NCBI GenBank assembly: GCA_965200395.1 | Contig: CBDAUH010000002.1 | Coordinates: 244,091 to 308,090, forward strand | Origin: Candidatus Poribacteria bacterium | Lineage (GTDB): Bacteria > Poribacteria > WGA-4E > WGA-3G | DNA: 64,000 nucleotides | Reading direction: 5' to 3' | In this document: positions 8,821-56,757 of the stretch, piece after piece | How positions within the stretch are numbered: the first letter of the stretch is position 1 | Layout of the letters: each line of letters starts with the position of its first letter | Position numbers and translations under genes: made by a program | The notes under the pieces: model-generated | The model's input: only the letters and a program-made list of their open reading frames with translations | Database searches by the model: none | Told to the model about the DNA's origin: nothing

Positions 8821-8957
8821 GAAACTCCGTAGAAATTGTTAACGCAATTGCCACAACCGAGGGCAGATCTGTTCGATGCACAACCTGGAAAGGTTATGCT
8901 ACAAAGAGACACAACCTAGAAAGGTTGTGCTACAAAATATACTTCATAGAACTCACG

Positions 8958-11708
8958 TTACTTTCGTATCAACATTTTACGTGTAGCATTGAAATCGCCT
9001 GCGGTGAGTGCATAAAAATAGATGCCAGTTGCGATGTGTTCACCCTGCGCGTTTTTGCCATCCCAATAGGCAGCACGATGCCGAGCTTCATAAATCCCCG
9101 CAGGTTGCTCTCCTAACGCTAAAGTTCGGACCAACCTGCCATCCACCGCATAGATGTGTATCGTTACTTCTGTAGACTGCGCTAAGCGATAGGGTATCCA
9201 TGTCTCAGGATTAGATGGGTTCGGATAGTTTGCCAGAAGTGCCGTCTTTTTGGGCAACAGAGTAGCAAGCAGTTGTTCAAGCATCGCAATACCTCGCTGG
9301 AAGATTGCGGTTTTGTTTTCCAATTGCTTTGCTTCGTCAATCCAGCGTTGTAGATTTGCTGCTGTCAAAATAACTGTGGGAGCTGTGGGTTCCGTTGCTA
9401 AGGCTGCCATGACCAATGCTAAATCCTCAGCATTGACGATGCCATCACCGTTTATATCTGTATTTGGTATTGCGTCATCTGGTGGGGTTGTGCCGATAGT
9501 CGCAGCGACTAAGACAAGGTCTTCGACATCGACAACACCATCTCTGTTCACATCTTCCGCTATTTGTGTTCCATGCTCTATACCGATAGCAGAAAAAACC
9601 GCCCAGGATTCGATGCCTTTTCCGGTAGCACGGACGGTATTCCTTCCGGGTGTCCATCCTAGTATTAAGTGAGCTTGTGCTCTACCCTGAGCGTTAGTTG
9701 TGGCGGTTGAAGAGGTGAGTTGTCCGCTACCGGTTTCCACAGTAAAGGTGATCAGTACGTTTTTCATGGGCTCACCACTGGCATCTTGTGCCGTCACAAC
9801 GAAGGGAGCTGGAAGGACTGATCCTACAAAGTCTTCCTGGTTATTTCCAGAGACTGTGTAGAGTGCTGGATGGGCTGCATCATTATACTCTATTTTAATT
9901 CCTTTCGCCAGCATAGCAGGGATATGGGTGTTAATAGAAACGTAGCTCAGCGGATTATTCCAAAGCCTCAGCCCGCTACGCCACATTGTTCCTATAAGGT
10001 TTAACGCTAACAGAGGCGATACATCTGAAATGTTGTTGCTGTTAAGCTCCAGCTGAGTTAGGTTCGTCAATGCTGATAGCACAGATATATCTGATATGTT
10101 ATTGTCATCAAGATCCAACCAAGTCAGGTTTTTCAACTCTGGTAGCATAGATATATCTGATATGTTATTGTCGCCAAGCCCTAGCGAGATTAGGTTTGTT
10201 AATCCTGACAGCATAGATATGTCTGATATGTTATTGCTGCTGAGATACAGCTGAGTCAGGTTTGTCAATCCCGATAGCACGGATATATCTGATATGTTAT
10301 CACCCTCAAGATATAGGTAAGTCAGGTTTGTCAATCCTGATAGCACGGATATATCTGATATGTTATTACCGCCAAGATATAGGTAAGTCAGGTTTGTCAA
10401 TCCTGATAGCACGGATATATTTGATATGTCATTGCCATAAAGCTGCAGCCGAATCAATTGTGTCAACTCTGATAGCGCGGACACATCTGAAATGTTGTTG
10501 TCGGAAAGAGATAGGATTTCCAGTTGTTTCAACGTGGACAATGCGGACACATCTGAAATGTTGTTGCTGTCCAGAGTTAACCAAGCTAGGTTGGGAGCAT
10601 GTTCAAGACCGGTGAGGTTCGTTATTCTGCTCTTGGAAGCATTTAGGACATACAAGTTCAGCATAGTGTGCGTTGTGATACTTCCAATCTGTTCTTGCAC
10701 TGCTGCTGCTAAATTTATATCTGGAATTGAAATAGCCTCGGCAGGCGGTAGTAGATCAGTGACATCAATAGGAAAGCTCTGTACTGTCCCCTGTCCATGC
10801 ACGTCAAAAACGACAAGATATACAGTCTCAGTTTTTGTTGTTAAGGCATTTGTGACAAATTCGACGGTGGCACTTGTACGCCCGTTTAATGCTTTACAAC
10901 CGGTCAAAGCTCCTCTACGGAATCTATTAATATTCGAAGTGGGTATGAAAAGCTGTACCTGATGGAATCCGTCTGGATCGGTTATTCTAAAGCGAAGACG
11001 GATAGTGTTTGGTGGGGAGACGAGGCTTGGCGGCAGCATCTCGATAGTTGACGGTTCTGATCGTTCGTTGACGTGGTTTACGTTAGCATTGAAGTAGCGA
11101 TGAACATCTAAAAATTCAGCGGCACATGCAGACAGCTGTGATTGACCAGGTCCGTAAGACATGATATAGCGACCATGTCGGAAATCGTGCCTCAATCCGA
11201 AGGTATGTCCGAGTTCATGGGCAATGAGCTGCCAGTACCATTGGTAAATATATGCGCGACCACTGAATCTATTTCCTGTACCTTGCCCACCCGCATCGAA
11301 TGGAAGTTTCTCCTGTCCATGGGTATCTATCATATAGACAATGATACGTCGTTTGGGAAAGTCAATCTGTTCAGCAGTCTCTTCCTCCCAGTCAAAGTTG
11401 TCTAGGTAACGTGTGTATGGGGATTTTCCAACGACATGATGGACGATGGTGTTTCCGTGTGCGTCGGTTTCAATTTGGAAGGTTTTTCTGCCGTATCCTT
11501 GTCGTTCCATTTCATCGGCGAAGAAGAGTTGTGCTTTTTTGACGAGTGCCTCGATTTCTGCGTCTACGCCGGCGCGGGGTTCCGTATCACTTGCGCGAAA
11601 GTAGACGAGATGAACCATCGGTCGCGCATCTTGTGCCTGTGCGACATGTGTTATGAAAAGCAGTGGAATGAAACATGCAAGTCCAATTGAAAATAGTTTT
11701 CTATTCAT
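8958..11708 (-). CDS. secreted multidomain protein: signal peptide, metzincin zinc-protease (HExxHxxGxxHD), leucine-rich repeats, Ig-like domain, two dockerin-like Ca-binding repeats, T9SS C-terminal sorting domain
   Basis: Signal peptide MNRKLFSIGLACFIPLLFITHVAQA. Metzincin motif HELGHTFGLRHD. About 9 LRRs of the NNISDISxLSGLTNLTxLxL type. Dockerin repeats DVNRDGVVDVEDL and DINGDGIVNAED. C-terminus NYPNPSNPETWIPYRL...GIYFYALTAGDFNATRKMLIRK is a typical Por secretion tail. Confidence 0.8.
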   Translation of the reverse strand: MNRKLFSIGLACFIPLLFITHVAQAQDARPMVHLVYFRASDTEPRAGVDAEIEALVKKAQLFFADEMERQGYGRKTFQIETDAHGNTIVHHVVGKSPYTRYLDNFDWEEETAEQIDFPKRRIIVYMIDTHGQEKLPFDAGGQGTGNRFSGRAYIYQWYWQLIAHELGHTFGLRHDFRHGRYIMSYGPGQSQLSACAAEFLDVHRYFNANVNHVNERSEPSTIEMLPPSLVSPPNTIRLRFRITDPDGFHQVQLFIPTSNINRFRRGALTGCKALNGRTSATVEFVTNALTTKTETVYLVVFDVHGQGTVQSFPIDVTDLLPPAEAISIPDINLAAAVQEQIGSITTHTMLNLYVLNASKSRITNLTGLEHAPNLAWLTLDSNNISDVSALSTLKQLEILSLSDNNISDVSALSELTQLIRLQLYGNDISNISVLSGLTNLTYLYLGGNNISDISVLSGLTNLTYLYLEGDNISDISVLSGLTNLTQLYLSSNNISDISMLSGLTNLISLGLGDNNISDISMLPELKNLTWLDLDDNNISDISVLSALTNLTQLELNSNNISDVSPLLALNLIGTMWRSGLRLWNNPLSYVSINTHIPAMLAKGIKIEYNDAAHPALYTVSGNNQEDFVGSVLPAPFVVTAQDASGEPMKNVLITFTVETGSGQLTSSTATTNAQGRAQAHLILGWTPGRNTVRATGKGIESWAVFSAIGIEHGTQIAEDVNRDGVVDVEDLVLVAATIGTTPPDDAIPNTDINGDGIVNAEDLALVMAALATEPTAPTVILTAANLQRWIDEAKQLENKTAIFQRGIAMLEQLLATLLPKKTALLANYPNPSNPETWIPYRLAQSTEVTIHIYAVDGRLVRTLALGEQPAGIYEARHRAAYWDGKNAQGEHIATGIYFYALTAGDFNATRKMLIRK
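10000..10620. repeat. intragenic near-perfect tandem DNA repeats of about 66 bp encoding the LRR units
   Basis: The unit GTCAGGTTTGTCAATCCTGATAGCACGGATATATCTGATATGTTATT... recurs about 9 times with few substitutions. Confidence 0.8.
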
Positions 11709-11739
11709 AAATACTTCTCCACATTTCCAGGTTGCGTCC

Positions 11740-12365
11740 CCGATGCACAACCTAGAAAGGTTGGTTGTCAGAATCGCGGATTTTCTCGGATTACGCGGAT
11801 TTTCGCGGATTTCCTCTGCCGTAGTCTGTTTTATTTTGTATACCGTTTACTTATTATTCGTGTCCCATGATGCACAACCTAGAAAGGTTGTGCTACAAAG
11901 AACGTTGTCCCCGCTGCAAAACCTGGAAAGGTTATGCTACAAAGAAGCAAAAATAAAAAGGAGACGCTTACAAAATCAAAAAAACTATAGCACAAAACAA
12001 TCCGCGTCAATCCGTGTAATCCGCGAAAATCCGTGATTCTGACATTTGTAGACGTTTACTTCTTGTTTGTGTCCCTTGATGCCCAACCTGGATGAAGATT
12101 AACTTACTAATTGGGTAATTTCTTGGAGAAGCCGGTACGGTTAGGAAGCTGTACCTACAGGGCCTGGAGAATATCGAATTGCCCAAATATTTTCTTAAAC
12201 TTCATAAAGGTTGTGCTACGAATATCCTTTGTATTTCGGATGCCGGACTCACGTAATTGTACGTCTTTGCTTCGTTATTCTAAGGCGGATTTCATAAGAT
12301 ACAAAATTCATAGATGTTTATGGAACTCACATTATGGTATAATTCATCCTTTTCATTGGGAAGCG
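11740..12365. repeat. non-coding repeat cluster: MITE family M2 with embedded palindromic R1 hairpins (GCACAACC-N6-GGTTGTGC), plus R2 fragments
   Basis: Repeated units gatgcacaacctagaaaggttgtgctacaaag, and aatccgcg motifs. Segment 12190-12340 matches 21548-21720 in reverse orientation. Confidence 0.7.
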
Positions 12366-12371: not shown

Positions 12372-13712
12372 TTAAAACGGCAATAATGGCAATAATAACG
12401 AACATAATTCGCGCAATATAGGAGCAATCTCGTTATCCGGTTCTAGTTCCATCGCTTTGTCAAAGTCATTAGTAGCACTACTGTATTTTTTTATAGCGAC
12501 CTGTGCAATTCCACGATAGATGTAAGCAAAAGTATGATCCGGATTGAGTTCTATCGCTTTATCGAAGTCAGCAATTCCATCATGAAAATCATATATTTCC
12601 CGGCAGCGGATTTTAGCCCTTCCACGATAGTAATAAGTATCAGGTAAATAAGAGTTAATCTCAAGTTCTATCGCTTTGTCAAAGTCAGTAACCGCATCAC
12701 CATATTTTCCCCATTCGACCTTCGTTTTTCCACGATAGTAGTAGGTAAGAGCATCAAGAGAAATCTCTATTGCTTTATCAAAGTCGGCAACTGCTGCCTC
12801 GTATTGACCGAGGCTATATTTTATAGCCCCACGACTGCGGTAAAGGCGTGCAGAAGGGCTGAATTCTATTGCTTTATCATAGTCGGCAACTGCTGCCTCG
12901 TATTGACCGAGGCTATATTTTGCAAACCCACGATTGTTGTAAAGGTTTGCAGAAGGGTTGAATTCTATTGCTTTATCATAGTCGGCAATTGCTGCCTCGT
13001 ATTGACCGAGGCTATATTTTGCAAACCCACGATCGTCGTAAAGGTCTGCAGAAGGGCTGAATTCTATTGCTTTATCATAGTCGGCAACTGCTGCCTCATA
13101 TTGAGACAATCCTCGTTTTGCATCTGCTCGTGAGATGTAAGCAGATGTATACTCCACGTTTATGCTAATTGCATAAGTGTAGTGGGTAATTGCATCCTCA
13201 TATTGCGACTTCCTACTATGATTCTGTCCTGCTTCAAAGAGGGCTTCCGCAATATTTTCTCCAGATATATTTTGTAGACAATTCCAAAATTGATCCCATG
13301 TAATTTTGTTAAACTTGTTTTTTCCCAAATTCTCATAAAATGCCCAATTATCAACGTTTGTGCTATCAGCATAAATTCCTAAAGGCGTATCAGTTGCACA
13401 AAGATATGACTTTAACTGGTTGATACCGTCCTCAACATATTCTAAACCTTCGCGTTTGCATTCGACAATGAAATCCAGTGAATCTACGCCGAGAACAATA
13501 TCAGATCTGCGTTTGTCTGATCCCATCTGAATTTCATATTCTGTTTCTATAAAAAAGTTGCGTAATATCGGTGAGAAGTAATTGATGACATTTTCTACTA
13601 CTTTTGCTTCATGTGGAGCATCTTGATGGCATTCAGGACACAATTTAAAGTCAGGTTCACGTGGCTGAGAATGTGCATGTTGGTGACAAAATACTTCGTT
13701 CAAGTTTTTCAT
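12372..13712 (-). CDS. fusion protein: N-terminal Zn-ribbon, HsdR-N-like PD-(D/E)XK nuclease domain, and about 7 C-terminal TPR repeats
   Basis: CHQHAH...CPECH. DIVLGVDSLDFIVECKREG...QLKSYL...LGIYADSTNVDNWAFY follows the HSDR_N pattern (D...ExK...Q..Y...G...W.FY). Repeated GQYEAAVADYDKAIEFSPSA TPR units. Confidence 0.6.
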   Translation of the reverse strand: MKNLNEVFCHQHAHSQPREPDFKLCPECHQDAPHEAKVVENVINYFSPILRNFFIETEYEIQMGSDKRRSDIVLGVDSLDFIVECKREGLEYVEDGINQLKSYLCATDTPLGIYADSTNVDNWAFYENLGKNKFNKITWDQFWNCLQNISGENIAEALFEAGQNHSRKSQYEDAITHYTYAISINVEYTSAYISRADAKRGLSQYEAAVADYDKAIEFSPSADLYDDRGFAKYSLGQYEAAIADYDKAIEFNPSANLYNNRGFAKYSLGQYEAAVADYDKAIEFSPSARLYRSRGAIKYSLGQYEAAVADFDKAIEISLDALTYYYRGKTKVEWGKYGDAVTDFDKAIELEINSYLPDTYYYRGRAKIRCREIYDFHDGIADFDKAIELNPDHTFAYIYRGIAQVAIKKYSSATNDFDKAMELEPDNEIAPILRELCSLLLPLLPF

Positions 13713-18744: not shown

Positions 18745-18800
18745 GATTTCACCTCACAAAATATAGAAACAGGACTTGCGCATTCCCCCGCTTGCGGGCT

Positions 18801-20135
18801 CACTTACCCCCATTTTTGTATGCGGTATGTGTAGGCGTGTGTGTGTATAGAAATAAGTTGGAAAGTCTGATGGGTTATGGTAGAATACCTCCATATAAAC
18901 CAATGTCGGTGAAAAACCGGCAGGGAGGTATTCTTATGAAATATACCCTTAGTTGGGTACACCCCAGAAAGATTATAACAGGTTTTCGTAAAGTTTTCAA
19001 CGGGGTTTGTATCAAAAAACCGACGCTCCGCAACTTTTATTTGATGCTACAGGCTGTGTGTGTAGCCCCAAGTTTTCGTATTCAATCGATTGCCTCACAT
19101 CTACCTATCCGTGTGAAACACGACAAGTCTAAGCAAAAGCGTGTGTTGCGGTTTATTGACACCTATTTTCCGGTTGCAGCGGTGAAGGGTGCTTGGTTGT
19201 CACATATAGTTGTCAGTGTGTGTCGTTCTGTGGGGATGCAGCATCTGCTTGTGCTGATAGACGAGACAGATTTACCGGGCGGATGGAAGGCGATTGTTGC
19301 AGCCCTTCCGTTTCGCAATCGTGCGATCCCGCTCTATTGGGTTCTGTATAAAAATGAGATGCTCAAAGATGGCACCTATCAAGGACATAACGATTTAGTT
19401 CAGCAGTTCTGTTGTGATGTCCATAGTCGCGTTGTTAAAGTGTTAGGGGATAGTCGGGAGCCTGTGTTGGTCTTTGACAGAGGGTTCGCCCGAGCGAGAG
19501 CGATCCTCAAGTTTTTTGAGGGGCAAGGCATCTGCTACTTGATGCGTGTGCCACGCAATGTTGGTGTGCGTATAGCAGGCAACAAGCAGTGCCTTGAAGA
19601 AGTGGCAAATGGTTTTTACCCACAAGTGCTTTATCACTACACGGAGCAGGTGCCTGTGGCACTCTATGTTGGGGGACAGCACACCAAGAAAGACCCGTTA
19701 TATCTTATCTCCAATCGGCTTCAGGGGAACCCCCTGCGAACTTGCTACAAGCGGCGGACACAGATTGAACACGGGTTCAGAGACTTGAAAACGAACTTCG
19801 GTTTCAAAGCACTCGTTTTGAGAAAGAACGAACAGCCCCGGATGGAAGTTCTGTTTTTGCTGGCAGTCGTGGCTTATGGTTTGGCGTTCCTGTGTTATGA
19901 AAAAGCTGCGGACAGATGGGCAAAAACTTTACACCCTACGCGGAAAGTTTACTCCGTGATCAGTGTCATCAACCGTATGATCCGCGAGGTGTGGACGCAG
20001 GAGGCGTTGCTCTTGTTCACCGAGAGGACTTGTTTGAGAGATATAAACTTTCTCACCGCAGAAGAACTGACATGACAACATTGGAAACCTATGAACACAA
20101 CTACACACGCATTCAAAAAAAAATGGGGGTAAGTG
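18801..20135 (+). mobile_element. IS4-family insertion sequence, copy A (1335 bp), first of a tandem pair
   Basis: Terminal inverted repeats (C)ACTTACCCCCATTTTT at both ends. Identical to copies B, C and D. Confidence 0.85.
18936..20075 (+). CDS. IS4-family DDE transposase (copy A)
   Basis: GGAGG RBS then ATG MKYTLSW. C-terminal YKRRTQIEHGFRDLKTNFGF (Y-R-E-K signature). Confidence 0.8.
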   Translation: MKYTLSWVHPRKIITGFRKVFNGVCIKKPTLRNFYLMLQAVCVAPSFRIQSIASHLPIRVKHDKSKQKRVLRFIDTYFPVAAVKGAWLSHIVVSVCRSVGMQHLLVLIDETDLPGGWKAIVAALPFRNRAIPLYWVLYKNEMLKDGTYQGHNDLVQQFCCDVHSRVVKVLGDSREPVLVFDRGFARARAILKFFEGQGICYLMRVPRNVGVRIAGNKQCLEEVANGFYPQVLYHYTEQVPVALYVGGQHTKKDPLYLISNRLQGNPLRTCYKRRTQIEHGFRDLKTNFGFKALVLRKNEQPRMEVLFLLAVVAYGLAFLCYEKAADRWAKTLHPTRKVYSVISVINRMIREVWTQEALLLFTERTCLRDINFLTAEELT

Positions 20136-20158
20136 CGGCTTGCGGGGGGATAAAGGCT

Positions 20159-21493
20159 CACTTACCCCCATTTTTGTATGCGGTATGTGTAGGCGTGTGT
20201 GTGTATAGAAATAAGTTGGAAAGTCTGATGGGTTATGGTAGAATACCTCCATATAAAATAATGTCGGTGAAAAACCGGCAGGGAGGTATTCTTATGAAAT
20301 ATACCCTTAGCTGGGTACATCCCAGAAAGATTATAACAGGTTTTCGTAAAGTTTTCAACGGGGTTTGTATCAAAAAACCGACGCTCCGCAACTTTTATTT
20401 GATGCTACAGGCTGTGTGTGTAGCCCCAAGTTTTCGTATTCAATCGATTGCCTCACATCTACCTATCCGTGTGAAACACGACAAGTCTAAGCAAAAGCGT
20501 GTGTTGCGGTTTATTGACACCTATTTTCCGGTTGCAGCGGTGAAGGGTGCTTGGTTGTCACATATAGTTGTCAGTGTGTGTCGTTCTGTGGGGATGCAGC
20601 ATCTGCTTGTGCTGATAGACGAGACAGATTTACCGGGCGGATGGAAGGCGATTGTTGCAGCCCTTCCGTTTCGCAATCGTGCGATCCCGCTCTATTGGGT
20701 TCTGTATAAAAATGAGATGCTCAAAGATGGCACCTATCAAGGACATAACGATTTAGTTCAGCAGTTCTGTTGTGATGTCCATAGTCGCGTTGTTAAAGTG
20801 TTAGGGGATAGTCGGGAGCCTGTGTTGGTTTTTGACAGAGGGTTCGCCCGAGCGAGAGCGATCCTCAAGTTTTTTGAGGGGCAAGGCATCTGCTACTTGA
20901 TGCGTGTGCCACGCAATGTTGGTGTGCGTATAGCAGGCAACAAGCAGTGCCTTGAAGAAGTGGCAAATGGTTTTTACCCACAAGTGCTTTATCACTACAC
21001 GGAGCAGGTGCCTGTGGCACTCTATGTTGGGGGACAGCACACCAAGAAAGACCCGTTATATCTTATCTCCAATCGGCTTCAGGGGAACCCCCTGCGAACT
21101 TGCTACAAGCGGCGGACACAGATTGAACACGGGTTCAGAGACTTGAAAACGAACTTCGGTTTCAAAGCACTCGTTTTGAGAAAGAACGAACAGCCCCGGA
21201 TGGAAGTTCTGTTTTTGTTGGCAGTCGTGGCTTATGGTTTGGCGTTCCTGTGTTATGAAAAAGCTGCGGACAGATGGGCAAAAACTTTACACCCTACGCG
21301 GAAAGTTTACTCCGTGATCAGTGTCATCAACCGTATGATCCGCGAGGTGTGGACGCAGGAGGCGTTGCTCTTGTTCACCGAGAGGACTTGTTTGAGAGAT
21401 ATAAACTTTCTCACCGCAGAAGAACTGACATGACAACATTGGAGACCTATGAACACAACTACACACGCATTCAAAAAAAAATGGGGGTAAGTG
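20159..21493 (+). mobile_element. IS4-family insertion sequence, copy B (tandem to A; 23-bp spacer CTTGCGGGGGGATAAAGG... recapitulating the target)
   Basis: Identical to copy A. Confidence 0.85.
20294..21433 (+). CDS. IS4-family DDE transposase (copy B)
   Basis: Identical protein to copy A. Confidence 0.8.
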   Translation: MKYTLSWVHPRKIITGFRKVFNGVCIKKPTLRNFYLMLQAVCVAPSFRIQSIASHLPIRVKHDKSKQKRVLRFIDTYFPVAAVKGAWLSHIVVSVCRSVGMQHLLVLIDETDLPGGWKAIVAALPFRNRAIPLYWVLYKNEMLKDGTYQGHNDLVQQFCCDVHSRVVKVLGDSREPVLVFDRGFARARAILKFFEGQGICYLMRVPRNVGVRIAGNKQCLEEVANGFYPQVLYHYTEQVPVALYVGGQHTKKDPLYLISNRLQGNPLRTCYKRRTQIEHGFRDLKTNFGFKALVLRKNEQPRMEVLFLLAVVAYGLAFLCYEKAADRWAKTLHPTRKVYSVISVINRMIREVWTQEALLLFTERTCLRDINFLTAEELT

Positions 21494-21790
21494 CGGGATA
21501 AAGGGGGGTAAGACCTCGAAAGTAACGAAAAATACAGGATAAAATACATAAAAAACGTGAGTTCCATAAACATTTATGAATTTTGTATCTTATGAAATTC
21601 GCCTTAGCATAGCGAAGCAAAGACGGACAATTCCGTGAGTTCGGTGTCCGAAATACGAAGGATATTTGTAGCACAACCTGTCTAGGTTGTGCATCCTACA
21701 AAAAATGGTTTATTTCCAAACTCACGTTAAAAAACAAAATTCTAAACAAGAACACACAAATTTGCGTCCGTCCTACAGAAATTAGGATGT
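21494..21790. repeat. right half of the MITE M1 into which IS copies A/B inserted. It itself carries a nested M2 MITE (TIR AACGTGAGTTCCATAAACAT ... ATTTCCAAACTCACGTT with an internal R1 hairpin)
   Basis: Sequence matches M1 at 21987-22116 except for a ~170-bp insert bounded by inverted repeats. Confidence 0.6.
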
Positions 21791-21986: not shown

Positions 21987-22116
21987 CAGGACTTATGCAT
22001 TCCCCCCGCTTGCGGGGGATAAAGGGGGGTAAGTCCTCGAAAATAGCAAAAAATACGGGATAAAATACATAAAAAACAAAATTTTAAACAAGAACACACA
22101 AAATTGCGTAAGTCCT
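21987..22116. repeat. intact 130-bp MITE M1 (TIRs CAGGACTTATGCA ... TGCGTAAGTCCTG), the unoccupied IS4 target
   Basis: Internal site CCCCGCTTGCGGGGGATAAAGGGGGGTAAG is exactly where copies A/B and D are inserted. Confidence 0.75.
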
Positions 22117-22140
22117 GTTTAACCATAATTCGATTTTCCG

Positions 22141-22824: not shown

Positions 22825-24116
22825 ATGAGAAATGGGAATGTTATTGCTGTAATACTTGGCGGCGGTCGCGGCACACGTTTATTTCCACTGACACGCGACC
22901 GCGCAAAACCGAGTGTCCCAATTGCAGGCAAATTTAGACTGGTCGATATTCCGATTAGTAACTGCCTCTATTCGGGCTTAGAACGGATATATGTCTTGAC
23001 ACAGTTTAATTCTGTATCTCTAAATAGGCACATTGCACAGGCATACCGGTTTGATAGTTATCGGCGCGGGTTCGTACAAATTTTAGCTGCACAACAGACC
23101 CTAATGGGAGATGAATGGTATCAGGGAACAGCGGATGCAATTAAGCATAACCAACCTTACATTCTCAATCCACGTTTTGCAAACGAACATGTGCTGATCC
23201 TTGCAGGTGATCATCTCTATCGAATGGATTATCGGAAGATGTTGGCAGTTCACAATGAAACAAACGCAGACATCACAGTTTCTGTCATTCCTGTGAACAA
23301 AGAGGTTACAAGCGCGCTCGGTATCCTCCAAGCTGATGCAAGTGGACGTATTACTGATTTTGTTGAAAAACCCCAAACACATGAAGAACTGCAGCAATTG
23401 CGGGTTGAACCGAATGTCTTTACTTCACGTGGTATTGAACCGAAAGGTAGAGAGTATATTGCCTCAATGGGTATTTACATCTTTAATCGAAATGTACTAC
23501 AAGAGGTATTACAGGATGATTCAAATGTGGATTTTGGTAGGGACATAATACCAAAAAGCATAAAGACACATACAGTTTCTGCTTATTTTTTTGATGGGTA
23601 TTGGGAGGATATCGGGACTATCCGAGCCTTTTATGCCGCAAATATCGCACTAACGGATGCTTCCCTGAATTCAATTTTTACGATGAACAAGCACCTATCT
23701 ATACTAACAGAAGGCATCTACCAAGCACAAAAGTAAACAGTAGTAGTATTCGCTCATCTGTTCTTGCAGAGGGTTCTATCATTGATGATTCAGAATTGGA
23801 CAGAACAATCGTTGGAATACGAAGTATCATCTCAAGTGGCAGCCGGGTATATCAGTCGGTCCTGATGGGGGCTGATTTCTATGAGTCGAATGCACTTCGG
23901 TCAGAAAATGAACAGGCAGGGATCCCACATGTTGGGATTGGCAAAAAATGTCTAATACAAAATGCAATTATTGACAAAAATGCACGAATTGGCGATAATG
24001 CAGTAATCGCAAATACAAAAAATGTTGACAATTTTGATGCAGATAACTATTATATACGCGACGGGATAGTAATTGTACCTAAAGATGCTACGATTCTACC
24101 TGATACAGTAATATAA
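22825..24116 (+). pseudogene. glgC: glucose-1-phosphate adenylyltransferase with an apparent -1 frameshift near 23662 (CCC run)
   Basis: Frame 1 carries the N-terminal NTP-transferase domain (VIAVILGGGRGTRLFPLT...QGTADAI). Frame 3 carries the C-terminal LbH domain (PEFNFYDEQAPIYT...GIGKKCLIQNAIIDKNARIG). The junction LTDAS|PEFNFY needs one extra C. Confidence 0.75.
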
Positions 24117-25376: not shown

Positions 25377-25772
25377 TGGTTGATAAACAGCATCTCCTAA
25401 CCACAGAACAGATGGCGAATTTCGTAGCTGATGGTTACCTTCGCTTTGATGATTTTATTCCGGATGAATTAAATAAAGCTGCCCATGAAGAGATGGCATC
25501 AGGTATGGCAGTTCGAGGGGGCGGCGGCACCGTCCTAGATAATGTCTGGCATGATGATTCTGCTGTTGGCAAAGTCTTCCGTTTGCCCAAAGTGCAAGGT
25601 ATAATCCAAAGTCTTGTCGGTGAAAGTCCGTTGTATGATCATCATGCAGTGCATATTGTGCGTCCACAAAGTCAACATGGGCAAATTTGGCATGCAGATG
25701 CGATCATTGACATACGGATGCATTTTGACATCCAGTTCTTCTATTTTTCACACGACACCCCCCGAGAAATCG

Positions 25773-27107
25773 CACTTACCCCCATTTTTTTTTGAATGCG
25801 TGTGTAGTTGTGTTCATAGGTTTCCAATGTTGTCATGTCAGTCCTTCTGCGGTGAGAAAGTTTATATCTCTCAAACAAGTCCTCTCGGTGAACAAGAGCA
25901 ACGCCTCCTGCGTCCACACCTCGCGGATCATACGGTTGATGACACTGATCACGGAGTAAACTTTCCGCGTAGGGTGTAAAGTTTTTGCCCATCTGTCCGC
26001 AGCTTTTTCATAACACAGGAACGCCAAACCATAAGCCACGACTGCCAGCAAAAACAGAACTTCCATCCGGGGCTGTTCGTTCTTTCTCAAAACGAGTGCT
26101 TTGAAACCGAAGTTCGTTTTCAAGTCTCTGAACCCGTGTTCAATCTGTGTCCGCCGCTTGTAGCAAGTTCGCAGGGGGTTCCCCTGAAGCCGATTGGAGA
26201 TAAGATATAACGGGTCTTTCTTGGTGTGCTGTCCCCCAACATAGAGTGCCACAGGCACCTGCTCCGTGTAGTGATAAAGCACTTGTGGGTAAAAACCATT
26301 TGCCACTTCTTCAAGGCACTGCTTGTTGCCTGCTATACGCACACCAACATTGCGTGGCACACGCATCAAGTAGCAGATGCCTTGCCCCTCAAAAAACTTG
26401 AGGATCGCTCTCGCTCGGGCGAACCCTCTGTCAAAGACCAACACAGGCTCCCGACTATCCCCTAACACTTTAACAACGCGACTATGGACATCACAACAGA
26501 ACTGCTGAACTAAATCGTTATGTCCTTGATAGGTGCCATCTTTGAGCATCTCATTTTTATACAGAACCCAATAGAGCGGGATCGCACGATTGCGAAACGG
26601 AAGGGCTGCAACAATCGCCTTCCATCCGCCCGGTAAATCTGTCTCGTCTATCAGCACAAGCAGATGCTGCATCCCCACAGAACGACACACACTGACAACT
26701 ATATGTGACAACCAAGCACCCTTCACCGCTGCAACCGGAAAATAGGTGTCAATAAACCGCAACACACGCTTTTGCTTAGACTTGTCGTGTTTCACACGGA
26801 TAGGTAGATGTGAGGCAATCGATTGAATACGAAAACTTGGGGCTACACACACAGCCTGTAGCATCAAATAAAAGTTGCGGAGCGTCGGTTTTTTGATACA
26901 AACCCCGTTGAAAACTTTACGAAAACCTGTTATAATCTTTCTGGGGTGTACCCAACTAAGGGTATATTTCATAAGAATACCTCCCTGCCGGTTTTTCACC
27001 GACATTATTTTATATGGAGGTATTCTACCATAACCCATCAGACTTTCCAACTTATTTCTATACACACACACGCCTACACATACCGCATACAAAAATGGGG
27101 GTAAGTG
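25773..27107 (-). mobile_element. IS4-family insertion sequence, copy C, flanked by 9-bp target-site duplication CCGAGAAAT
   Basis: Identical 1335-bp element. CCGAGAAAT appears at 25764-25772 and 27110-27118. Confidence 0.85.
25833..26972 (-). CDS. IS4-family DDE transposase (copy C)
   Basis: Identical to copy A. Confidence 0.8.
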   Translation of the reverse strand: MKYTLSWVHPRKIITGFRKVFNGVCIKKPTLRNFYLMLQAVCVAPSFRIQSIASHLPIRVKHDKSKQKRVLRFIDTYFPVAAVKGAWLSHIVVSVCRSVGMQHLLVLIDETDLPGGWKAIVAALPFRNRAIPLYWVLYKNEMLKDGTYQGHNDLVQQFCCDVHSRVVKVLGDSREPVLVFDRGFARARAILKFFEGQGICYLMRVPRNVGVRIAGNKQCLEEVANGFYPQVLYHYTEQVPVALYVGGQHTKKDPLYLISNRLQGNPLRTCYKRRTQIEHGFRDLKTNFGFKALVLRKNEQPRMEVLFLLAVVAYGLAFLCYEKAADRWAKTLHPTRKVYSVISVINRMIREVWTQEALLLFTERTCLRDINFLTAEGLT

Positions 27108-27566
27108 AGCCGAGAAATGGGGGGCACAATGATCCTACCTGGAAGCCATTTCAGACGTGTCTGTGAAACCGATGTAGCGCGTTATCAAAACTTCCTTGGA
27201 CAACACCCGATAGTTTGTAACGCAGGTACACTTGTCGTCGTACATCATGGTATTTGGCACTGTGCACAACCCAACTTGACTGACGAAACACGGTATATGT
27301 TCAAGTTACGCCTCAATCCGACTGTACGTCAACTCAAATTATGGAATACAGATGACATCGATACGGCAGGAATTCGTGGTATTCTGGGCCGGAACCATAG
27401 ATGGTATGGCAATGATGTACGTCTTGAAATTGTCAATCGAATTAAGTTTTGGCGTTTCCTGACTGGAAATGAATCCTACGATGTCGGTTATTGGCTATCT
27501 CGTCTTGAAAATATGCCAGAGAATGTGCCGAACGTAGCGTAGTTTCTAAACTCTTAAACACAAAAC

Positions 27567-39676: not shown

Positions 39677-40993
39677 AGGGTTATTTAGTTTTATAGATAT
39701 TCATTTTATCAAGTTAACTGTGAGTAAAGGTTTTGATGCATATTCCTTTATTTTATCAGCGATCCGTGTTATGCCTTGAAAACGGAATACGGATAATGCG
39801 GTATTTCGTAAAGCGGCCATGACTTGTGGAATAGCCCCGCATCTGACAGGTGATGCGTCCTCGCCGAGTAGCACATCGCGCATCCAATGCGACTTGTTCT
39901 CTATTGCCCAATGGCCTCTCCGTAAAGCAAGTAAGCGTTCTGCGGATGCCTCACTCGGTTTCAGGCTCGTAATCCCATAGGTAGTGCGGGTTGTCTCTTC
40001 TCCTGTCTTCATATTTTTGGAAGTATAGCAATATTGGATCACTTGTGCTACGCCCGGCCAATCCAGATATGCGTTGAGACTTGTGCTTGCCTTGATACAT
40101 CGCGTCTCAAGTCTGCCATGCGACTTTTCAATCGTCTCATGCATGTATATCGGTTTCCCTAAAGTAGGGTGTGTTGTGTCTTCAGAAACCGCGTCAGGCA
40201 CGCCTTGAAAAAGTTTTTCAATCGCTTCTAACAGGTCCGGTTGATTGCCTTTAACAGGCAGCATATAGTCGCCCCCGCTGTTTATGATTCCGTGGCAGAA
40301 AGAGCGTTGTGTCAAAAGGGCATCCGTTGTGATAACTTTGCCTGCTACATCAAACGCTTTGAGGATTTCCGTTGATACCGGTATTTCATTGGTTTTGTCG
40401 CTGACACCTCGCTGCGTGAGGGTGATCCCTAACTCATGAGAGACGACGGAGAGTAAATGGCTGATCATCGCACCACTTTTTTTAGACGCACGCAGGGTTT
40501 TGCCATCTATAGCGACTGCGTCGGAACACCCCCGCAAATCAGGGCACTCTGCTAATGCGGCGTTTACCCATTTTGACAGGATGTTTTCTAATGCCTCAAC
40601 GTCCAACTTTTTCAACAGATTATGGATAGTTGCGGCACAAGGCGTTTTGTGATGTGTGAACCCGAGTGCTTTTGTGAGTGCGGGCTGTGAGCGTGCCCAG
40701 GTAGCGATGGATGTATACCCTTTATGCCCGCACATCAATCCAACGACTAAAAGTGCGAGGATTGCTTTCAACGGGTGTCGTTTCCCTTTTTCCTTGCGTG
40801 GGTCTGTAAGTTCTGCTAACATATCCATTAAGTGGCAGGACTTTTTTCTTGTCATTCTTCACCTCAAAAGATCGTAAGTTTTTAAGGTGAAGTATAGCAG
40901 ATATACCATGAAAAATCACGGTATATCTGCACATCCTAAAATATTAACGATTGTGATAAAAAACAACTAAAATACATAAAACTAAATAACCCT
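39677..40993 (-). mobile_element. ISAs1-family insertion sequence inside an R2 repeat; IRs GGGTTATTTAGTTTTAT; 11-bp TSD ATCCGGTGAAT
   Basis: Inverted repeats at 39678-39694 and 40976-40992. ATCCGGTGAAT at 39666-39676 and 40994-41004. The flanks rejoin to a normal R2 sequence. Confidence 0.8.
39701..40855 (-). CDS. ISAs1-family transposase (H-repeat-associated protein type)
   Basis: ...LALRRGHWAIENKSHWMRDVLLGED... is the ISAs1 signature. N-terminal DDE_Tnp_1_assoc-like region. Confidence 0.8.
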   Translation of the reverse strand: MTRKKSCHLMDMLAELTDPRKEKGKRHPLKAILALLVVGLMCGHKGYTSIATWARSQPALTKALGFTHHKTPCAATIHNLLKKLDVEALENILSKWVNAALAECPDLRGCSDAVAIDGKTLRASKKSGAMISHLLSVVSHELGITLTQRGVSDKTNEIPVSTEILKAFDVAGKVITTDALLTQRSFCHGIINSGGDYMLPVKGNQPDLLEAIEKLFQGVPDAVSEDTTHPTLGKPIYMHETIEKSHGRLETRCIKASTSLNAYLDWPGVAQVIQYCYTSKNMKTGEETTRTTYGITSLKPSEASAERLLALRRGHWAIENKSHWMRDVLLGEDASPVRCGAIPQVMAALRNTALSVFRFQGITRIADKIKEYASKPLLTVNLIK

Positions 40994-45340: not shown

Positions 45341-45376
45341 ACAGATCAGGACTTACGCATTCCCCCCGCTTGCGCT

Positions 45377-46711
45377 CACTTACCCCCATTTTTGTATGCG
45401 GTATGTGTAGGCGTGTGTGTGTATAGAAATAAGTTGGAAAGTCTGATGGGTTATGGTAGAATACCTCCATATAAACCAATGTCGGTGAAAAACCGGCAGG
45501 GAGGTATTCTTATGAAATATACCCTTAGCTGGGTACATCCCAGAAAGATTATAACAGGTTTTCGTAAAGTTTTCAACGGGATTTGTATCAAAAAACCGAC
45601 GCTCCGCAACTTTTATTTGATGCTACAGGCTGTGTGTGTAGCCCCGAGTTTTCGTATTCAATCGATTGCCTCACATCTACCTATCCGTGTGAAACACGAC
45701 AAGTCTAAGCAAAAGCGTGTGTTGCGGTTTATTGATACCTATTTTCCGGTTGCAGCGGTGAAGGGTGCTTGGTTGTCACATATAGTTGTCAGTGTGTGTC
45801 GTTCTGTGGGGATGCAGCATCTGCTTGTGCTGATAGACGAGACAGATTTACCGGGCGGATGGAAGGCGATTGTTGCAGCCCTTCCGTTTCGCAATCGTGC
45901 GATCCCGCTCTATTGGGTTCTGTATAAAAATGAGATGCTCAAAGATGGCACCTATCAAGGACATAACGATTTAGTTCAGCAGTTCTGTTGTGATGTCCAT
46001 AGTCGCGTTGTTAAAGTGTTAGGGGATAGTCGGGAGCCTGTGTTGGTTTTTGACAGAGGGTTCGCCCGAGCGAGAGCGATCCTCAAGTTTTTTGAGGGGC
46101 AAGGCATCTGCTACTTGATGCGTGTGCCACGCAATGTTGGTGTGCGTATAGCAGGCAACAAGCAGTGCCTTGAAGAAGTGGCAAATGGTTTTTACCCACA
46201 AGTGCTTTATCACTACACGGAGCAGGTGCCTGTGGCACTCTATGTTGGGGGACAGCACACCAAGAAAGACCCGTTATATCTTATCTCCAATCGGCTTCAG
46301 GGGAACCCCCTGCGAACTTGCTACAAGCGGCGGACACAGATTGAACACGGGTTCAGAGACTTGAAAACGAACTTCGGTTTCAAAGCACTCGTTTTGAGAA
46401 AGAACGAACAGCCCCGGATGGAAGTTCTGTTTTTGTTGGCAGTCGTGGCTTATGGTTTGGCGTTCCTGTGTTATGAAAAAGCTGCGGACAGATGGGCAAA
46501 AACTTTACACCCTACGCGGAAAGTTTACTCCGTGATCAGTGTCATCAACCGTATGATCCGCGAGGTGTGGACGCAGGAGGCGTTGCTCTTGTTCACCGAG
46601 AGGACTTGTTTGAGAGATATAAACTTTCTCACCGCAGAAGAACTGACATGACAACATTGGAAACCTATGAACACAACTACACACGCATTCAAAAAAAAAT
46701 GGGGGTAAGTG
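45377..46711 (+). mobile_element. IS4-family insertion sequence, copy D (1335 bp)
   Basis: Identical to copies A-C. Confidence 0.85.
45512..46651 (+). CDS. IS4-family DDE transposase (copy D)
   Basis: Identical to copy A except one substitution (GVCIKK to GICIKK). Confidence 0.8.
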   Translation: MKYTLSWVHPRKIITGFRKVFNGICIKKPTLRNFYLMLQAVCVAPSFRIQSIASHLPIRVKHDKSKQKRVLRFIDTYFPVAAVKGAWLSHIVVSVCRSVGMQHLLVLIDETDLPGGWKAIVAALPFRNRAIPLYWVLYKNEMLKDGTYQGHNDLVQQFCCDVHSRVVKVLGDSREPVLVFDRGFARARAILKFFEGQGICYLMRVPRNVGVRIAGNKQCLEEVANGFYPQVLYHYTEQVPVALYVGGQHTKKDPLYLISNRLQGNPLRTCYKRRTQIEHGFRDLKTNFGFKALVLRKNEQPRMEVLFLLAVVAYGLAFLCYEKAADRWAKTLHPTRKVYSVISVINRMIREVWTQEALLLFTERTCLRDINFLTAEELT

Positions 46712-46819
46712 CGGGATAAAGGGGGGTAAGTCCTCGAAAATAGCAAAAAATATGGGATAAAATACATAAAAAAACAAAATTTTAAACAAGAACGCACAAA
46801 ATTGCGTAAGTCCTGCAGA

Positions 46820-49463: not shown

Positions 49464-49501
49464 TGTTCTCTCCGTATATATATATTTGATACTATAGGAT
49501 A

Positions 49502-51065
49502 CTATAGTTTGGACATTTTTGGTCTTGTTATAGATTATGAATAGTTGGCAGCATTTCCCCGTTAGCACTTCTGAACAGGTGTTAGAACTGCTGCTAACGC
49601 CCCTTTTTTGTCTAAATTCTGTTAGAAATCACTGTTTTTTAGCCATCATTTTTCCAATAATCGTGAAAATAGTTGCTGCTGAACCATTTTCACATAGTAT
49701 CTTCGGGATTTTCAGTTTTTTCTGTGCGTTTTTCCCCGGGTCGTAACTCGTATAAAAATAGTTTTGTTGTAAACGTCGCTGCAAGTAAGCGGTCATCAAG
49801 CCGCGTGTGAGATGTTTCGGTTTATACCAGTGTATATTGAGTGTGGATAGCACGTCTTCTAAATCAAGAGAAACCTTGTCTGTGTCTGTGTCTGCGGGTG
49901 TCTTAGGCAATGGCGACGGACTGAAAGCGAGTTGTGTCAGCGTTGCTGCGGTGAAACTGAGTTGAGCGAACCGATCCAAACTTTTCCTGTCTCGGAGTTG
50001 ATAGGTGTCAAATCCGAAGTTTTCTTTAGCGTCCCGAAAGGCAGTTTCAATCTGCCACCGGTTTCTATAGTGTCGGATAACTGTTTCTACGGGCAGTCGT
50101 AAATCTGAAGTAAATACACAAAAATACCGATAGGGTTTAGACTTTTTCAAGCGTTTGCGTATCACAACGATGCGGACATCCACAGGACACATCTTTGTTC
50201 GCACGACTTTATCAGCGACAGAAAGTGTCTGATCCTCAACAACGATGTCTGTATACTTCAGGTGTGGAATAGACACACGGCTACCATACCGACGGGGTCT
50301 GCCTCTCTTGAGACGCTTAGGGCGTTTCGGTATATCAAAAAACGCTGCGTTTGACTTCGCACGACAAAGTAAATGATGTCCTTGTGAGAGTATCTCCGTG
50401 AACACTTTGCGTCTATTGAAGCCTCTATCAAAAACGATAAGACCCGGTGGCACAAGATTACATAAATGCTTCAGCACAGCGAGGCTATTTGCGTCCTCGC
50501 TTTTCGGTTCCATCATCCGTGTGGCTAATGGAAACAGGCGCGTGCCTTCGGGCGTTTCTGCCAGCCACCCAATCGCACCGAACTCGTGTCCGTGATGAAA
50601 CTTGGATTGGTTCTTGTTACGTGGCTGATACGCAGGGTTCCTGCGGAAATGCAAACCCGCTTGTTTTGAACCGCTACTTAGGGCATGTGTTTCATCATAG
50701 ACGTATACGCCCGTGGGGTAAGCGGATAGCACTTGATGGCTTAGCGTAGTGGCGACTTGATCCACACACCAGACACCACGTGAAAGAAACTTTGGCAGAG
50801 ACCAATACCGACCTGCTTGGGCTGTCGCAAGATAGATTTGTGTCATTGTGCCTCGGTAGGGCGTATTTATCAGACCTTTCACGAAAGTTTGAAAGTGATT
50901 GAAGTTGTTGTGCTTGAATAACGATCTGAATTGTGATAACATGTTGTCCAGGTAGGAAAGTGGGGTCATTAGACATACCCTTTCAAAAAGGTTTATATTT
51001 TCTAAAAGGATACCCGCTTTCCTGCTTTATGTCTATAAAAAAAACAAAAAATGTCCAAACTATAG
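49502..51065 (-). mobile_element. IS701/IS4-like insertion sequence, copy 1 (IRs CTATAGTTTGGACA)
   Basis: Terminal inverted repeats at 49502-49515 and 51052-51065. Confidence 0.8.
49629..50969 (-). CDS. IS701/IS4-like DDE transposase (446 aa)
   Basis: ...HYRNRWQIETAFRDAKENFGFD... W-x-IE-x-FR-x-K signature. Confidence 0.75.
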   Translation of the reverse strand: MTPLSYLDNMLSQFRSLFKHNNFNHFQTFVKGLINTPYRGTMTQIYLATAQAGRYWSLPKFLSRGVWCVDQVATTLSHQVLSAYPTGVYVYDETHALSSGSKQAGLHFRRNPAYQPRNKNQSKFHHGHEFGAIGWLAETPEGTRLFPLATRMMEPKSEDANSLAVLKHLCNLVPPGLIVFDRGFNRRKVFTEILSQGHHLLCRAKSNAAFFDIPKRPKRLKRGRPRRYGSRVSIPHLKYTDIVVEDQTLSVADKVVRTKMCPVDVRIVVIRKRLKKSKPYRYFCVFTSDLRLPVETVIRHYRNRWQIETAFRDAKENFGFDTYQLRDRKSLDRFAQLSFTAATLTQLAFSPSPLPKTPADTDTDKVSLDLEDVLSTLNIHWYKPKHLTRGLMTAYLQRRLQQNYFYTSYDPGKNAQKKLKIPKILCENGSAATIFTIIGKMMAKKQ

Positions 51066-51070
51066 TCTAC

Positions 51071-52469
51071 TATAGTTTGGACATTTTGGGACATTCAGGC
51101 TGCGTTGTCCGCAGGCAATGCTGTCTCTTTGTGAAAATCGGTGTGTATTTTCTGTGAGTTTGTTTTTTCAGAGTAAATCGCAGAAAATACCGCTCTGTAG
51201 AGCTGCCAGCGGAGATAAACTACACGCAACCCTTGTGTGAGACGCTTCGGATGATACCAATGGATGCCCAACTGATCACAAACTACCTGAGCACTTATCT
51301 CCTCCGCCGTCCCATCCCGTGGGGTGAATAGCAACTTCGTCAGACTTGCTGCAACGAAACTCAATTGCACAAACCGATTGATGCTTTTGCGGGATTTCAG
51401 GCGATAGTCATCAAAACCGAAGTGTTGCTTCGCATCCCGAAAAGCCGTCTCTATGTGCCATCTCTTGCGATAATATATAGCGATCTGTGGTATCCCAATC
51501 GTCAAATCTGTTGTCCATACACAGAAATACCGATAAGGTTTCGAGGTTTTCGGGCGACTTCGGATAACAACGAGGCGAATATCAGCATCGCACATCTTCG
51601 TTCTCACGACTTTGGAGGCGATTGAATACTTTTGGCCTTCTATATCCATAAGCGTATACCGCATCCTGCGAATATCCAAGCGGTCTCCATATTTTCGCGG
51701 ACGGCCACGCTGGCGATGTTTCGGCTGTTCCGGTAAACGATAGAAGACGGCATTAGACTTCGCACGACACAAGATATGATGTCCATAACTTTGAACCAGC
51801 GTAAACACTTTTCGCCTTGAGAACCCACGATCAAAAATAATAAGACCCGGAGCGATCTGGGAACAGATGCGTTTCAACACCGCATCGCTTTTATCACGGC
51901 ACGTCTGCGGCACCATCAGTCTCGCCCATACGGGGAATAGCTGCCAACCTGTAGATGTTTGGCAAAGTAAACCTAAGGCACCAAACTCGTGTCCATAATG
52001 GAACTTGGATCGGTTCACGCGACCCTTTTGATAACTGAAGTTGCGGAAAAAATGCAACCCCCACTGGCGTTCACCTGTTTTTATGGCTTTGGTCTCATCA
52101 TACACATAAACCCAGTTAGGAAATGCTTGCTGAACCTTTTTTGTCAGGTGTCCTGCGACTTTATCCGCATCCCATTTACCACGCGATAGAAACTTTGGAA
52201 AAGACCAGTATCGCGTCTGTGAAAAACCTGATTGATAAAGTTCCGTTAGCGTGCCACTATTTCCATCTGCGATAAATCCGAAAATAAACGCTTGGAAAAG
52301 AGCATAGTTTTGTGTGTTGAACAGATACTGAAAATCTGATAGAATGTCGTCTAAGCAGAAAAGGAGGTTCATTTTTTATTCTCCTTTCAAAAAATATATT
52401 TGTTTATGAAAGGATACCTGCTTTTCTGTTTTTTCGCACTAAAAATTTCTAAAATTGTCCAAACTATAG
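51071..52469 (-). mobile_element. paralogous IS701/IS4-like element (same IRs) in tandem, 5 bp after copy 1
   Basis: IRs CTATAGTTTGGACA at 51071 and 52456-52469. Transposase about 50% identical to copy 1. Confidence 0.75.
51095..52372 (-). CDS. IS701/IS4-like DDE transposase paralog (425 aa)
   Basis: ...YYRKRWHIETAFRDAKQHFGFD... Confidence 0.75.
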   Translation of the reverse strand: MNLLFCLDDILSDFQYLFNTQNYALFQAFIFGFIADGNSGTLTELYQSGFSQTRYWSFPKFLSRGKWDADKVAGHLTKKVQQAFPNWVYVYDETKAIKTGERQWGLHFFRNFSYQKGRVNRSKFHYGHEFGALGLLCQTSTGWQLFPVWARLMVPQTCRDKSDAVLKRICSQIAPGLIIFDRGFSRRKVFTLVQSYGHHILCRAKSNAVFYRLPEQPKHRQRGRPRKYGDRLDIRRMRYTLMDIEGQKYSIASKVVRTKMCDADIRLVVIRSRPKTSKPYRYFCVWTTDLTIGIPQIAIYYRKRWHIETAFRDAKQHFGFDDYRLKSRKSINRFVQLSFVAASLTKLLFTPRDGTAEEISAQVVCDQLGIHWYHPKRLTQGLRVVYLRWQLYRAVFSAIYSEKTNSQKIHTDFHKETALPADNAA

Positions 52470-56641: not shown

Positions 56642-56757
56642 TCCCGGCAGCGACCTACTTTCCCACGGGGTCACCCCCGAAGTATCATCAGCGCTGAAGG
56701 GCTTAACTACCGTGTTCGGAATGGGAACGGGTGTGTCCCCTTCGCTGTAACCACCGG
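56642..56757 (-). rRNA. rrf: 5S ribosomal RNA
   Basis: Reverse complement TCCGGTGGTTACAGCGAAGGGGACACACCCGTTCCCATTCCGAACACGGTAGTTAAGCCC...CGCTGCCGGGA matches 5S helices. Confidence 0.8.

Follow-up and report, generated by a model that had tools for sequence, protein, structure and literature searches.

The DNA analysed here is a stretch of 64,000 nucleotides from a Candidatus Poribacteria bacterium (contig CBDAUH010000002.1, positions 244,091 to 308,090 of the forward strand; hereafter the window), and our subject is an insertion sequence (IS) of 1339 bp, given the working name ISw, of which the window holds four copies. Self-BLAST, exact searches for the ends and inspection of the flanks placed copies A (18799..20137) and B (20157..21495) head to tail on the plus strand, copy C (25771-27109) on the minus strand and copy D (45375..46713) again on the plus strand, with transposase coding sequences at 18936-20075 (379 amino acids), 20294-21433, 25833-26972 and 45512-46651, respectively. 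Copy A begins with CTCACTTACCCCCATTTTT..., the left end of the element, and finishes with ...AAAAATGGGGGTAAGTGCG; the reverse complement of the right end is CGCACTTACCCCCATTTTT, the terminal inverted repeats (TIRs) being imperfect, and the sequences CTCACTTACCCCCATTTTTG and ATGGGGGTAAGTGCG represent the two ends. The base that precedes CTCAC is G, C or T depending on the copy, which fixes the left boundary at this point. Pairwise comparison of the four copies gave 3-10 mismatches, which corresponds to 99.25-99.78% identity, with 7 positions differing between A and B.

Copies A, B and D lie within M1, a 131-bp miniature inverted-repeat transposable element (MITE) with 13-bp TIRs (CAGGACTTAYGCA) present three times in the window, twice occupied and once empty. 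M1 is short and non-coding, carries TIRs and flanking direct repeats of 5-7 bp (TTTAACC, GCAAAAG, GAATAA, CAGAT) and was seen in at least six copies, as expected of a MITE, while a search of the window for an autonomous element with M1 ends found none. Its 5' part reads C6-GCTTGC-G5/6-ATAAA-G6-TAAGTCC, and the first two runs of this segment form a GC hairpin. The empty copy (21987..22117, plus strand, 131 bp) is bordered on both sides by TTTAACC direct repeats and retains C6-GCTTGC-G5 and G5-ATAAA-G6 unoccupied.

The occupied M1 copy 1 allowed us to reconstruct the origin of the tandem pair. Its left arm (18770..18798, plus strand) comprises the TIR CAGGACTTGCGCA, the C-run and the hairpin loop, and its final 9 nucleotides (18790-18798), GCTTGCGGG, are the left target-site duplication (TSD) of copy A. 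The A-B spacer (20138..20156) measures 19 bp, or 18 bp if an ambiguous first G is assigned to the IS, and is made up of the right TSD of A (20138-20146), a single G (20147) and the left TSD of B, GGATAAAGG (20148-20156). M1 continues on the plus strand at 21496..21556 with the right TSD of B (21496-21504) and then GGGGTAAGACCTCG..., which opens with the last four G of a run starting inside that duplication. Each copy is flanked on both sides by its own 9-bp TSD, GCTTGCGGG for A in the hairpin loop and GGATAAAGG for B 10 bp downstream of A's site. Since the spacer equals GCTTGCGGG + G + GGATAAAGG, the tandem pair goes back to two insertions that took place independently in a single M1 at sites 10 bp from each other, and is neither a duplication nor a dimer intermediate.

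M1 copy 1 also contains M2, a MITE-like insert of 171 bp (21557..21727) with ends GTGAGTT...AACTCAC and 8-bp flanking repeats TAAAAAAC, beyond which the right end of M1 copy 1 (21728..21775, plus strand) carries a degenerate TIR, TTGCGTCCGTCCTA. This single 131-bp element was struck three times, by ISw A, ISw B and M2. M2, an unrelated element, belongs to the nested locus but not to the history of ISw, and pieces related to it lie at 12208-12330, 63341-63406, 11869-11899 and 8910-8945.

The two other copies in the window differ from this arrangement. Copy C lies outside M1 and has the TSD ATTTCTCGG at 25762-25770 and 27110-27118 (minus strand; 25762..27118 with both duplications), within the target CCCCCC-ATTTCTC-GGGGGG. 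Copy D, inserted in M1 copy 3, has no target duplication: the left arm (45347..45374, plus strand) ends in ...GCTTGCG (...CCCCCCGCTTGCG), whereas the right part (46714..46815, plus strand) starts with GGATAAAGGGGGGTAAGTCC... and, as its first nucleotides, GGATAAAGG, a junction identical to that on the right side of copy B. The left junction of D is thus of the A type, although 2 nucleotides further left than in A, and the right one is of the B type, and D is most simply explained by homologous recombination that collapsed a tandem pair, which would give exactly these flanks. M1, which accounts for 0.67% of the IS-free window, holds three of the four window copies (binomial P = 1.2e-6).

The preliminary description of this DNA, made from the letters alone, had already recognised four copies of one IS, the head-to-tail pair and an unoccupied M1, and all of these were recovered here. 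Other parts of it require revision. The copies are not 100% identical, the spacer of the tandem is 19 bp instead of 23 bp, and nesting in a 130-bp MITE applies to A, B and D (with M1 at 131 bp) but not to C. Nor do A, B and D share one position, as A and B have different duplications 10 bp apart and D has none.

The ISw transposase and its family

IS4-family elements are defined by the YREK signature, Y(2)R(3)E(6)K, which includes the catalytic glutamate, and further characterised by a D(60-110)D(100-150)E arrangement, a single open reading frame (ORF) and a TSD of about one helical turn (PMC2266710). The ISw transposase scored 45.7 bits against Pfam DDE_Tnp_1 (PF01609; cut-off 23), and its best NCBIfam model was IS4 (transpos_IS4_2) with an E of 1.4e-30, although the 106.6 bits obtained are below the curated cut-off of 152. 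In an alignment of ISw with 24 homologues, D109, D181 and E278 never vary, and neither does Y271-x2-R274-x3-E278-x6-K285, which corresponds to the YREK signature. The D-D spacing of 72 is within the family's range, while the D-E spacing of 97 is 3 short of it, and the 9-bp target duplication found at 11 sites falls within the 7-13 bp, about one helical turn, of the IS4 family. On these sequence features (DDE_Tnp_1 domain, DDE triad, YREK and 9-bp TSD) ISw is assigned to the IS4 family, as had been proposed.

Within the family, ISw resembles the IS10-like subgroup (De Palmenaer, Siguier & Mahillon 2008, PMC2266710) in its length of 1339 bp (range 1200-1350), its 5'-CT left end, its 9-bp duplication and its DDE transposase, which is encoded by one ORF and carries Y(2)R(3)E(6)K, but its right end reads CG, unlike the 5'-CT ends of that subgroup. 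The nearest named IS found by tblastn, ISTth2, is only 27% identical. A protein-pattern scan found no near-identical ISw proteins among GTDB representative genomes, exact-DNA searches of JGI metagenomes returned zero matches to the ISw left end and zero to the M1 left arm, and phmmer of the transposase against PDB sequences gave nothing useful.

The transposase frame has no stop codon through the ISw left end (window 18792-18935), and because the frame is open across this end gene callers give proteins of at least 401 amino acids. Read-through ORFs entering from the flanks are called as fusion proteins of 443-629 amino acids (database proteins P0001-P0003, P0130, P0133) with partners such as Lactamase_B/HTH_3 or VCBS domains, and a 505-amino-acid ORF (19916-21433) crosses the A/B junction.

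A wider sample of ISw copies

Exact-protein look-ups added 11 copies, each on a distinct small contig of ENA assembly ERZ25068762 (loci L001 to L011) and none overlapping the window outside the IS, which gave a sample of 15 copies. All 15 have an intact 379-amino-acid ORF without frameshift at 98.5% identity or more, and variable sites are distributed reticulately over them. As judged from these sequences, ISw has probably been active recently and probably still is, in line with the preliminary description.

Clean 9-bp TSDs were found for A, B, C, L002, L004-L008, L010 and L011. L005 and L007 occupy the B site of M1 with the TSD GGATAAAGG, which is therefore shared by three independent M1 copies, and L006 lies at the same site in the opposite orientation with a shift of 1 nucleotide (TSD GATAAAGGG). 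L009 is in an M1-like module, reversed and without TSD, having the loop-side flank on one side and the GATAAAGG flank on the other, that is, a reversed D; it is most simply a recombination product like D. Outside M1 we found L002 (TSD GCTGGAGAC), L004 (TSD AACGTACCC, then C6), L008 (TSD GTCCAAGTC), L010 (TSD GATCTGTCC, in GGGG...CC) and L011 (TSD GATTGTACC, in GGG...CCCC), together with L001 and L003, which have no TSD. M1-like modules thus hold 7 of the 15 copies, in both orientations, and the remaining 8 lie elsewhere. Taking the M1 density of 0.67% from the window, the binomial P for 7 of 15 in the M1 hairpin module is 3.5e-12, and such a significant excess at a set place within a palindromic repeat characterises ISs that target palindromes or repetitive extragenic palindromic (REP) sequences (PMC1525189), a class into which ISw falls.

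Within M1, at least five distinct cut positions were used, in both orientations, and the hairpin-loop site was cut at three offsets (A, the left side of D, and L009). B, L005 and L007 differ in M1 sequence within 5-8 nucleotides of the junction. The reversed insertions at the same site, the three loop offsets and these M1 differences close to the junction show repeated independent hits.

These data bear on three further proposals of the preliminary description. Its suggestion of a strong preference for G-rich sites was borne out by the G/C-run motif at the M1 and C sites described below, but its site-specific nesting at one position was not, given the number of cut positions and the use of both orientations. 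Homing elements carry an endonuclease, ribozyme or recombinase and enter one invariant point with no duplication of the target; homing is likewise disfavoured, because the only ORF encodes a DDE transposase that makes ordinary 9-bp duplications at several insertion points, and homing through gene conversion is at odds with the different junction-adjacent M1 sequences of occupied copies. As to whether most copies lie outside M1, the division is roughly even (7/15 M1-like, 8/15 outside).

Two side observations concern M1 itself. Across 323 kb from other Poribacteria loci (L016, L017, L028, L032, L035, L044 and L060 among them) there are 16 instances of its terminal motif, AGGACTTACGCA, frequently in the form AGGACTTACGCATTT..CTTAAAGTCCCC, and it seems to be the terminus of a phylum-wide small-repeat family. 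In addition, M1-like hairpin modules (units GCGTAGCCCGCAAGCGGGGGGAGATAAGA, then GGGGCACCCGCAAGAGAGAAATGAGAAA) are tandemly repeated beside the IS in L006 (3769-3840) and L009 (3769-3920), and M1 is therefore part of a broader hairpin-repeat family.

A G/C-run motif as the probable target of ISw

We scanned the IS-free window of 58.6 kb for a motif composed of a G/C run of at least 5, 4-8 nucleotides and a second G/C run of at least 5. It was found at just five places, of which M1 copy 1 and the empty M1 each contain two and the fifth is the C site. The reconstructed D site escapes the scan, as its intervening G's have been lost, and lowering the threshold to runs of at least 4 adds three sites, all within the 5S and 23S rRNA genes. 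The probability that all four copies fall at such sites by chance is about 4e-12, counting seven sites, two of which are assumed for the M1 of D, with 12 positions each. Among non-M1 sites with a TSD, a GGG/CCC run is present at one boundary or more in 6/6 and at both in 3/6, against a background of 12.7% and 0.5%, respectively, and the 9-bp duplication covers the spacer plus 0-3 nucleotides of the runs. Because M1 and the C site are the sole locations of the motif, what ISw targets appears to be this motif, which is present twice in M1, and not M1 as such.

The data show the anatomy of the insertions, the duplications beside them, the statistics of their sites and that the events were independent. 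The joint explanation that accounts for these observations best, to which we assign a probability of about 0.75, is that ISw targets a G/C-run motif for which M1 is a double hot spot. The element would select local sequence or shape, namely a spacer of 5-7 nucleotides, usually richer in A/T, between homopolymeric runs of G or C, and a 9-bp staggered cut would span this spacer. Each M1 would offer two such sites back to back (C6-GCTTGC-G6-ATAAA-G6), and because the motif occurs twice in a row, M1 can be hit twice and the double hits can collapse by recombination. Two independent insertions 10 bp apart would produce a tandem like A/B, and recombination between the tandem copies would remove one IS with the spacer, leaving an A-type left and a B-type right flank. 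In keeping with proposals made for other IS4-family elements, we infer that G/C tracts around a flexible core favour target capture by the transpososome and bending of the target.

Several points weigh against this explanation. Only 15 copies were sampled, compared with 64 variants in the 90%-identity protein cluster, which lie on contigs of 2.60, 1.53 and 1.46 Mb (the last includes the window), and these three contigs of the source genome, all above 1.4 Mb, are represented in the sample by the window only; the 11 added copies were all taken from low-coverage contigs in a single metagenome assembly. Since the G/C-run rule was framed once the sites were known, its statistics are post hoc, and the L002 and L008 sites match it poorly. 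The most used site, G6-ATAAA-G6, has no two-fold symmetry, unlike the others. Just past the B site, M1 matches the right end of the IS exactly over 10 nucleotides (GGGGGTAAGT), and binding of the transposase to this mimic could contribute to targeting. Finally, the origin of D, L009, L001 and L003 by recombination is one that we infer.

The mimic is central to a different account, in which the transposase recognises M1 itself, for instance by binding the inverted-repeat-like GGGGGTAAGT/ACTTACCCCC and inserting next to it, the G/C runs being incidental; IS30 behaves in this way towards its own ends. The match to the right-end core is directly 3' of the B site, ACTTAC is present in the M1 TIRs, M1-like modules hold almost half of the copies, and the L004 and L011 sites contain GGGGTAC, which resembles GGGGTAAG. 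Nevertheless, C and L010 occupy G/C-run sites that have no TAAGT motif, ISw has inserted in either orientation with respect to the mimic, and the geometry between mimic and TSD in M1 differs from that in L004 and L011, which makes recognition of M1 as such unlikely. We give still less weight to the possibility that identical IS-M1 junctions spread without repeated insertion, either because the transposase of M1 mobilised an M1::IS composite or because M1 copies underwent gene conversion with one another ('homing' by recombination). Such spread would explain the exact same junction in B, L005, L007 and on the right side of D, and D and L007 do have identical adjacent M1 sequence, yet it cannot yield the reversed same-site insertions (L006, L009) or three loop offsets, B and L005 differ in the M1 sequence near their junctions, IS haplotypes are common to M1-borne and non-M1 copies, and C has the same type of target without M1.

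Targeting could also be illusory, with random insertion and survival only of those copies that land where they do no harm, for instance in MITEs. As M1 lies between genes and encodes nothing, insertions into it should be neutral; against this, the same 9 nucleotides of the 131 bp were used repeatedly, genes or other ISs contain several of the copies (L002, L008 and those of the read-through fusion ORFs), and intergenic DNA is far more abundant than M1, all of which renders selection alone very improbable. Least credible of all is an origin of the tandem pair as an error of assembly or as a replicative (IS)2 dimer intermediate. Tandem repeats can be mis-assembled, and IS30, IS21 and IS911 are known to form (IS)2 dimers, but 7 positions distinguish A from B, the spacer derives from the target with a complete 9-bp duplication for each copy, and reactive dimer ends are only a few bp apart, compared with the 19 bp of ISw. 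The explanation by a G/C-run target doubled in M1 thus remains the one that we prefer.

Relatives in other Poribacteria insert next to -35-like motifs

An alignment-based scan of GTDB representative genomes yielded 161 relatives of ISw, and we studied the best 80 (46-58% amino acid identity), all of which are on Candidatus Poribacteria chromosomes (L012-L091; e.g. OZ242315.1, OZ242029.1, OZ251998.1), a distribution that makes a poribacterial origin of the window most likely. Their copies are 1333-1365 bp long with ends xTCAyyTrCCCCCATTTT and duplications of 9-12 bp, are not in M1-like sequence, and have unique sequences as insertion flanks. TTGAC lies 10-16 nucleotides (almost always 12-14) from an IS end at 32/75 sites, where 1.5 would be expected, and the duplication ends exactly 3 nucleotides upstream of TTG[ACT][ACT] at 36/66 sites (P ~2e-45). 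The 49 anchored sites, once aligned, read cTTGACa-N17-TGnTAnaAT, equivalent to a sigma-70 promoter with an extended -10. The -35-like motif adjoins either IS end about equally, in both orientations, and the closest lineage, L095 (58% identity), follows the same rule. As a test of promoter identity, the presence of a downstream ORF was only weakly discriminating (45/55 versus 35/55 for the control flank).

Three related ideas were rejected. ISw itself does not obey it, since TTG is at the right offset in only 1/8 of its non-M1 sites; M1 does not qualify as a promoter, inspection revealing no properly spaced -35/-10 pair on either strand; and the TTGAC target is not a mimic of the relatives' own terminus GTGAC, because subfamilies ending in ...ATGAA follow the same rule. 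Separately, a motif AAAACTGAATAGCCCTG / ACTATAAATGACCCT was observed at about nine of the relatives' sites (L027, L045, L047, L050, L053, L056, L065, L081 and L082), 5-10 nucleotides from the duplication and opposite the -35 side.

We tentatively suggest, at somewhat less than even odds, that these elements form a Poribacteria-restricted IS4-like clade that sets its cut at a fixed distance from a short motif in one arm of the target, which in the relatives would place it just upstream of the -35 hexamer, and that ISw is an offshoot that exchanged the hexamer for G/C runs and thereby gained a haven in a MITE. If the relatives do measure 3 nucleotides from the -35 hexamer, they would parallel, in bacteria, the eukaryotic retroelements that are tethered to promoters, and their insertions could serve as natural marks of promoters in an uncultivated phylum. 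We found no description of -35-proximal IS insertion in the literature searched, which is weak evidence of novelty, and we know of no promoter-sparing safe haven upstream of the -35 for bacterial ISs.

Other features of the window

The window holds at least three further IS families. One is represented by a gene for a 384-amino-acid transposase (39701-40855) belonging to a cluster of 25 variants. A pair of 1.56-kb repeats (49500-51066 and 61694-63257), 96-98% identical, carries DDE_5/DDE_Tnp_1 and is IS701-like, and a gene for a 425-amino-acid DDE_5 protein lies at 51095-52372. The genome is very IS-rich.

The repeat copy at 61694-63257 lies just upstream of an rRNA region on the minus strand that comprises the 5S (56642-56758) and 23S (56819-59853) rRNA genes and a tRNA gene (59950-60022); no 16S rRNA gene was found in the 64-kb window. 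A glgC-like gene (glucose-1-phosphate adenylyltransferase, 22825-24113) has its frame split around 23664-23715 relative to homologues of 430 amino acids, and is either a frameshifted pseudogene or the result of a sequencing indel. Large ORFs contain tandem repeats, of 66 bp (7 or more copies, 10001-10594) in the ORF at 8958-11750 and of 99 bp (4 copies, 12667-13104) in the ORF at 12372-13712.

Comparison with known systems

Other members of the IS4 family offer parallels to the target of ISw. In E. coli K-12 MG1655, IS186A lies in GGGG-ATCACT-CCCC, and ISw likewise inserts between G/C runs. The consensus of IS186 is (G)>=4 N3-6 (C)>=4, and a study of 2001 reportedly described a consensus target and, in the promoter of lon, a hot spot. 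Unlike IS186, for which a G-run is followed by a C-run, ISw also uses C...G and G...G arrangements, and its hot spot is another mobile element instead of a promoter. IS231A of Bacillus thuringiensis is said to insert in the ends of Tn4430 according to work by Hallet and colleagues in 1991 and 1994. Both IS231A and ISw belong to the IS4 family and preferentially nest in a second transposable element, at sites flanked by G/C. The target of IS231A is GGG(N)5CCC, its duplication is 10-12 bp and its host is the end of a Tn3-family transposon, whereas ISw makes 9-bp duplications in the hairpin of a MITE. A degree of insertion specificity has been noted for IS231A (PMC2266710).

ISs that target REP sequences and other palindromes, such as ISRm22, ISPpu9/10, ISPa11 and ISPsy8 (Tobes & Pareja 2006, PMC1525189), share with ISw the use of small palindromic intergenic repeats as hot spots, and one of them, ISRm22, is itself an IS4-family element with strongly conserved target arms (PMC2266710). 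Most REP-targeters, in contrast, belong to the IS110 and IS3 families, which use other chemistries, and ISw also inserts at G/C-run sites that are not in repeats. The head-to-tail arrangement of A and B recalls the (IS)2 dimers of IS30, IS21 and IS911; the A/B junction, unlike theirs, is 19 bp of duplicated target in which each copy has its own TSD, and IS4-family elements move by cut-and-paste, without circles or dimer junctions (PMC2266710).

ISw is thus an ordinary though well-resolved case of an IS whose target preference gives rise to copies in nested and tandem arrangements, and a preference for G/C-flanked sites is already documented in the IS4 family. The locus illustrates how a target motif borne by a MITE becomes a double hot spot, how tandem pairs arise there and how these can then yield, by recombination, copies without TSDs. 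While not conceptually new, this should be of use for annotating the IS-rich genomes of Poribacteria, which are sponge symbionts, and for interpreting ISs that lack target duplications.

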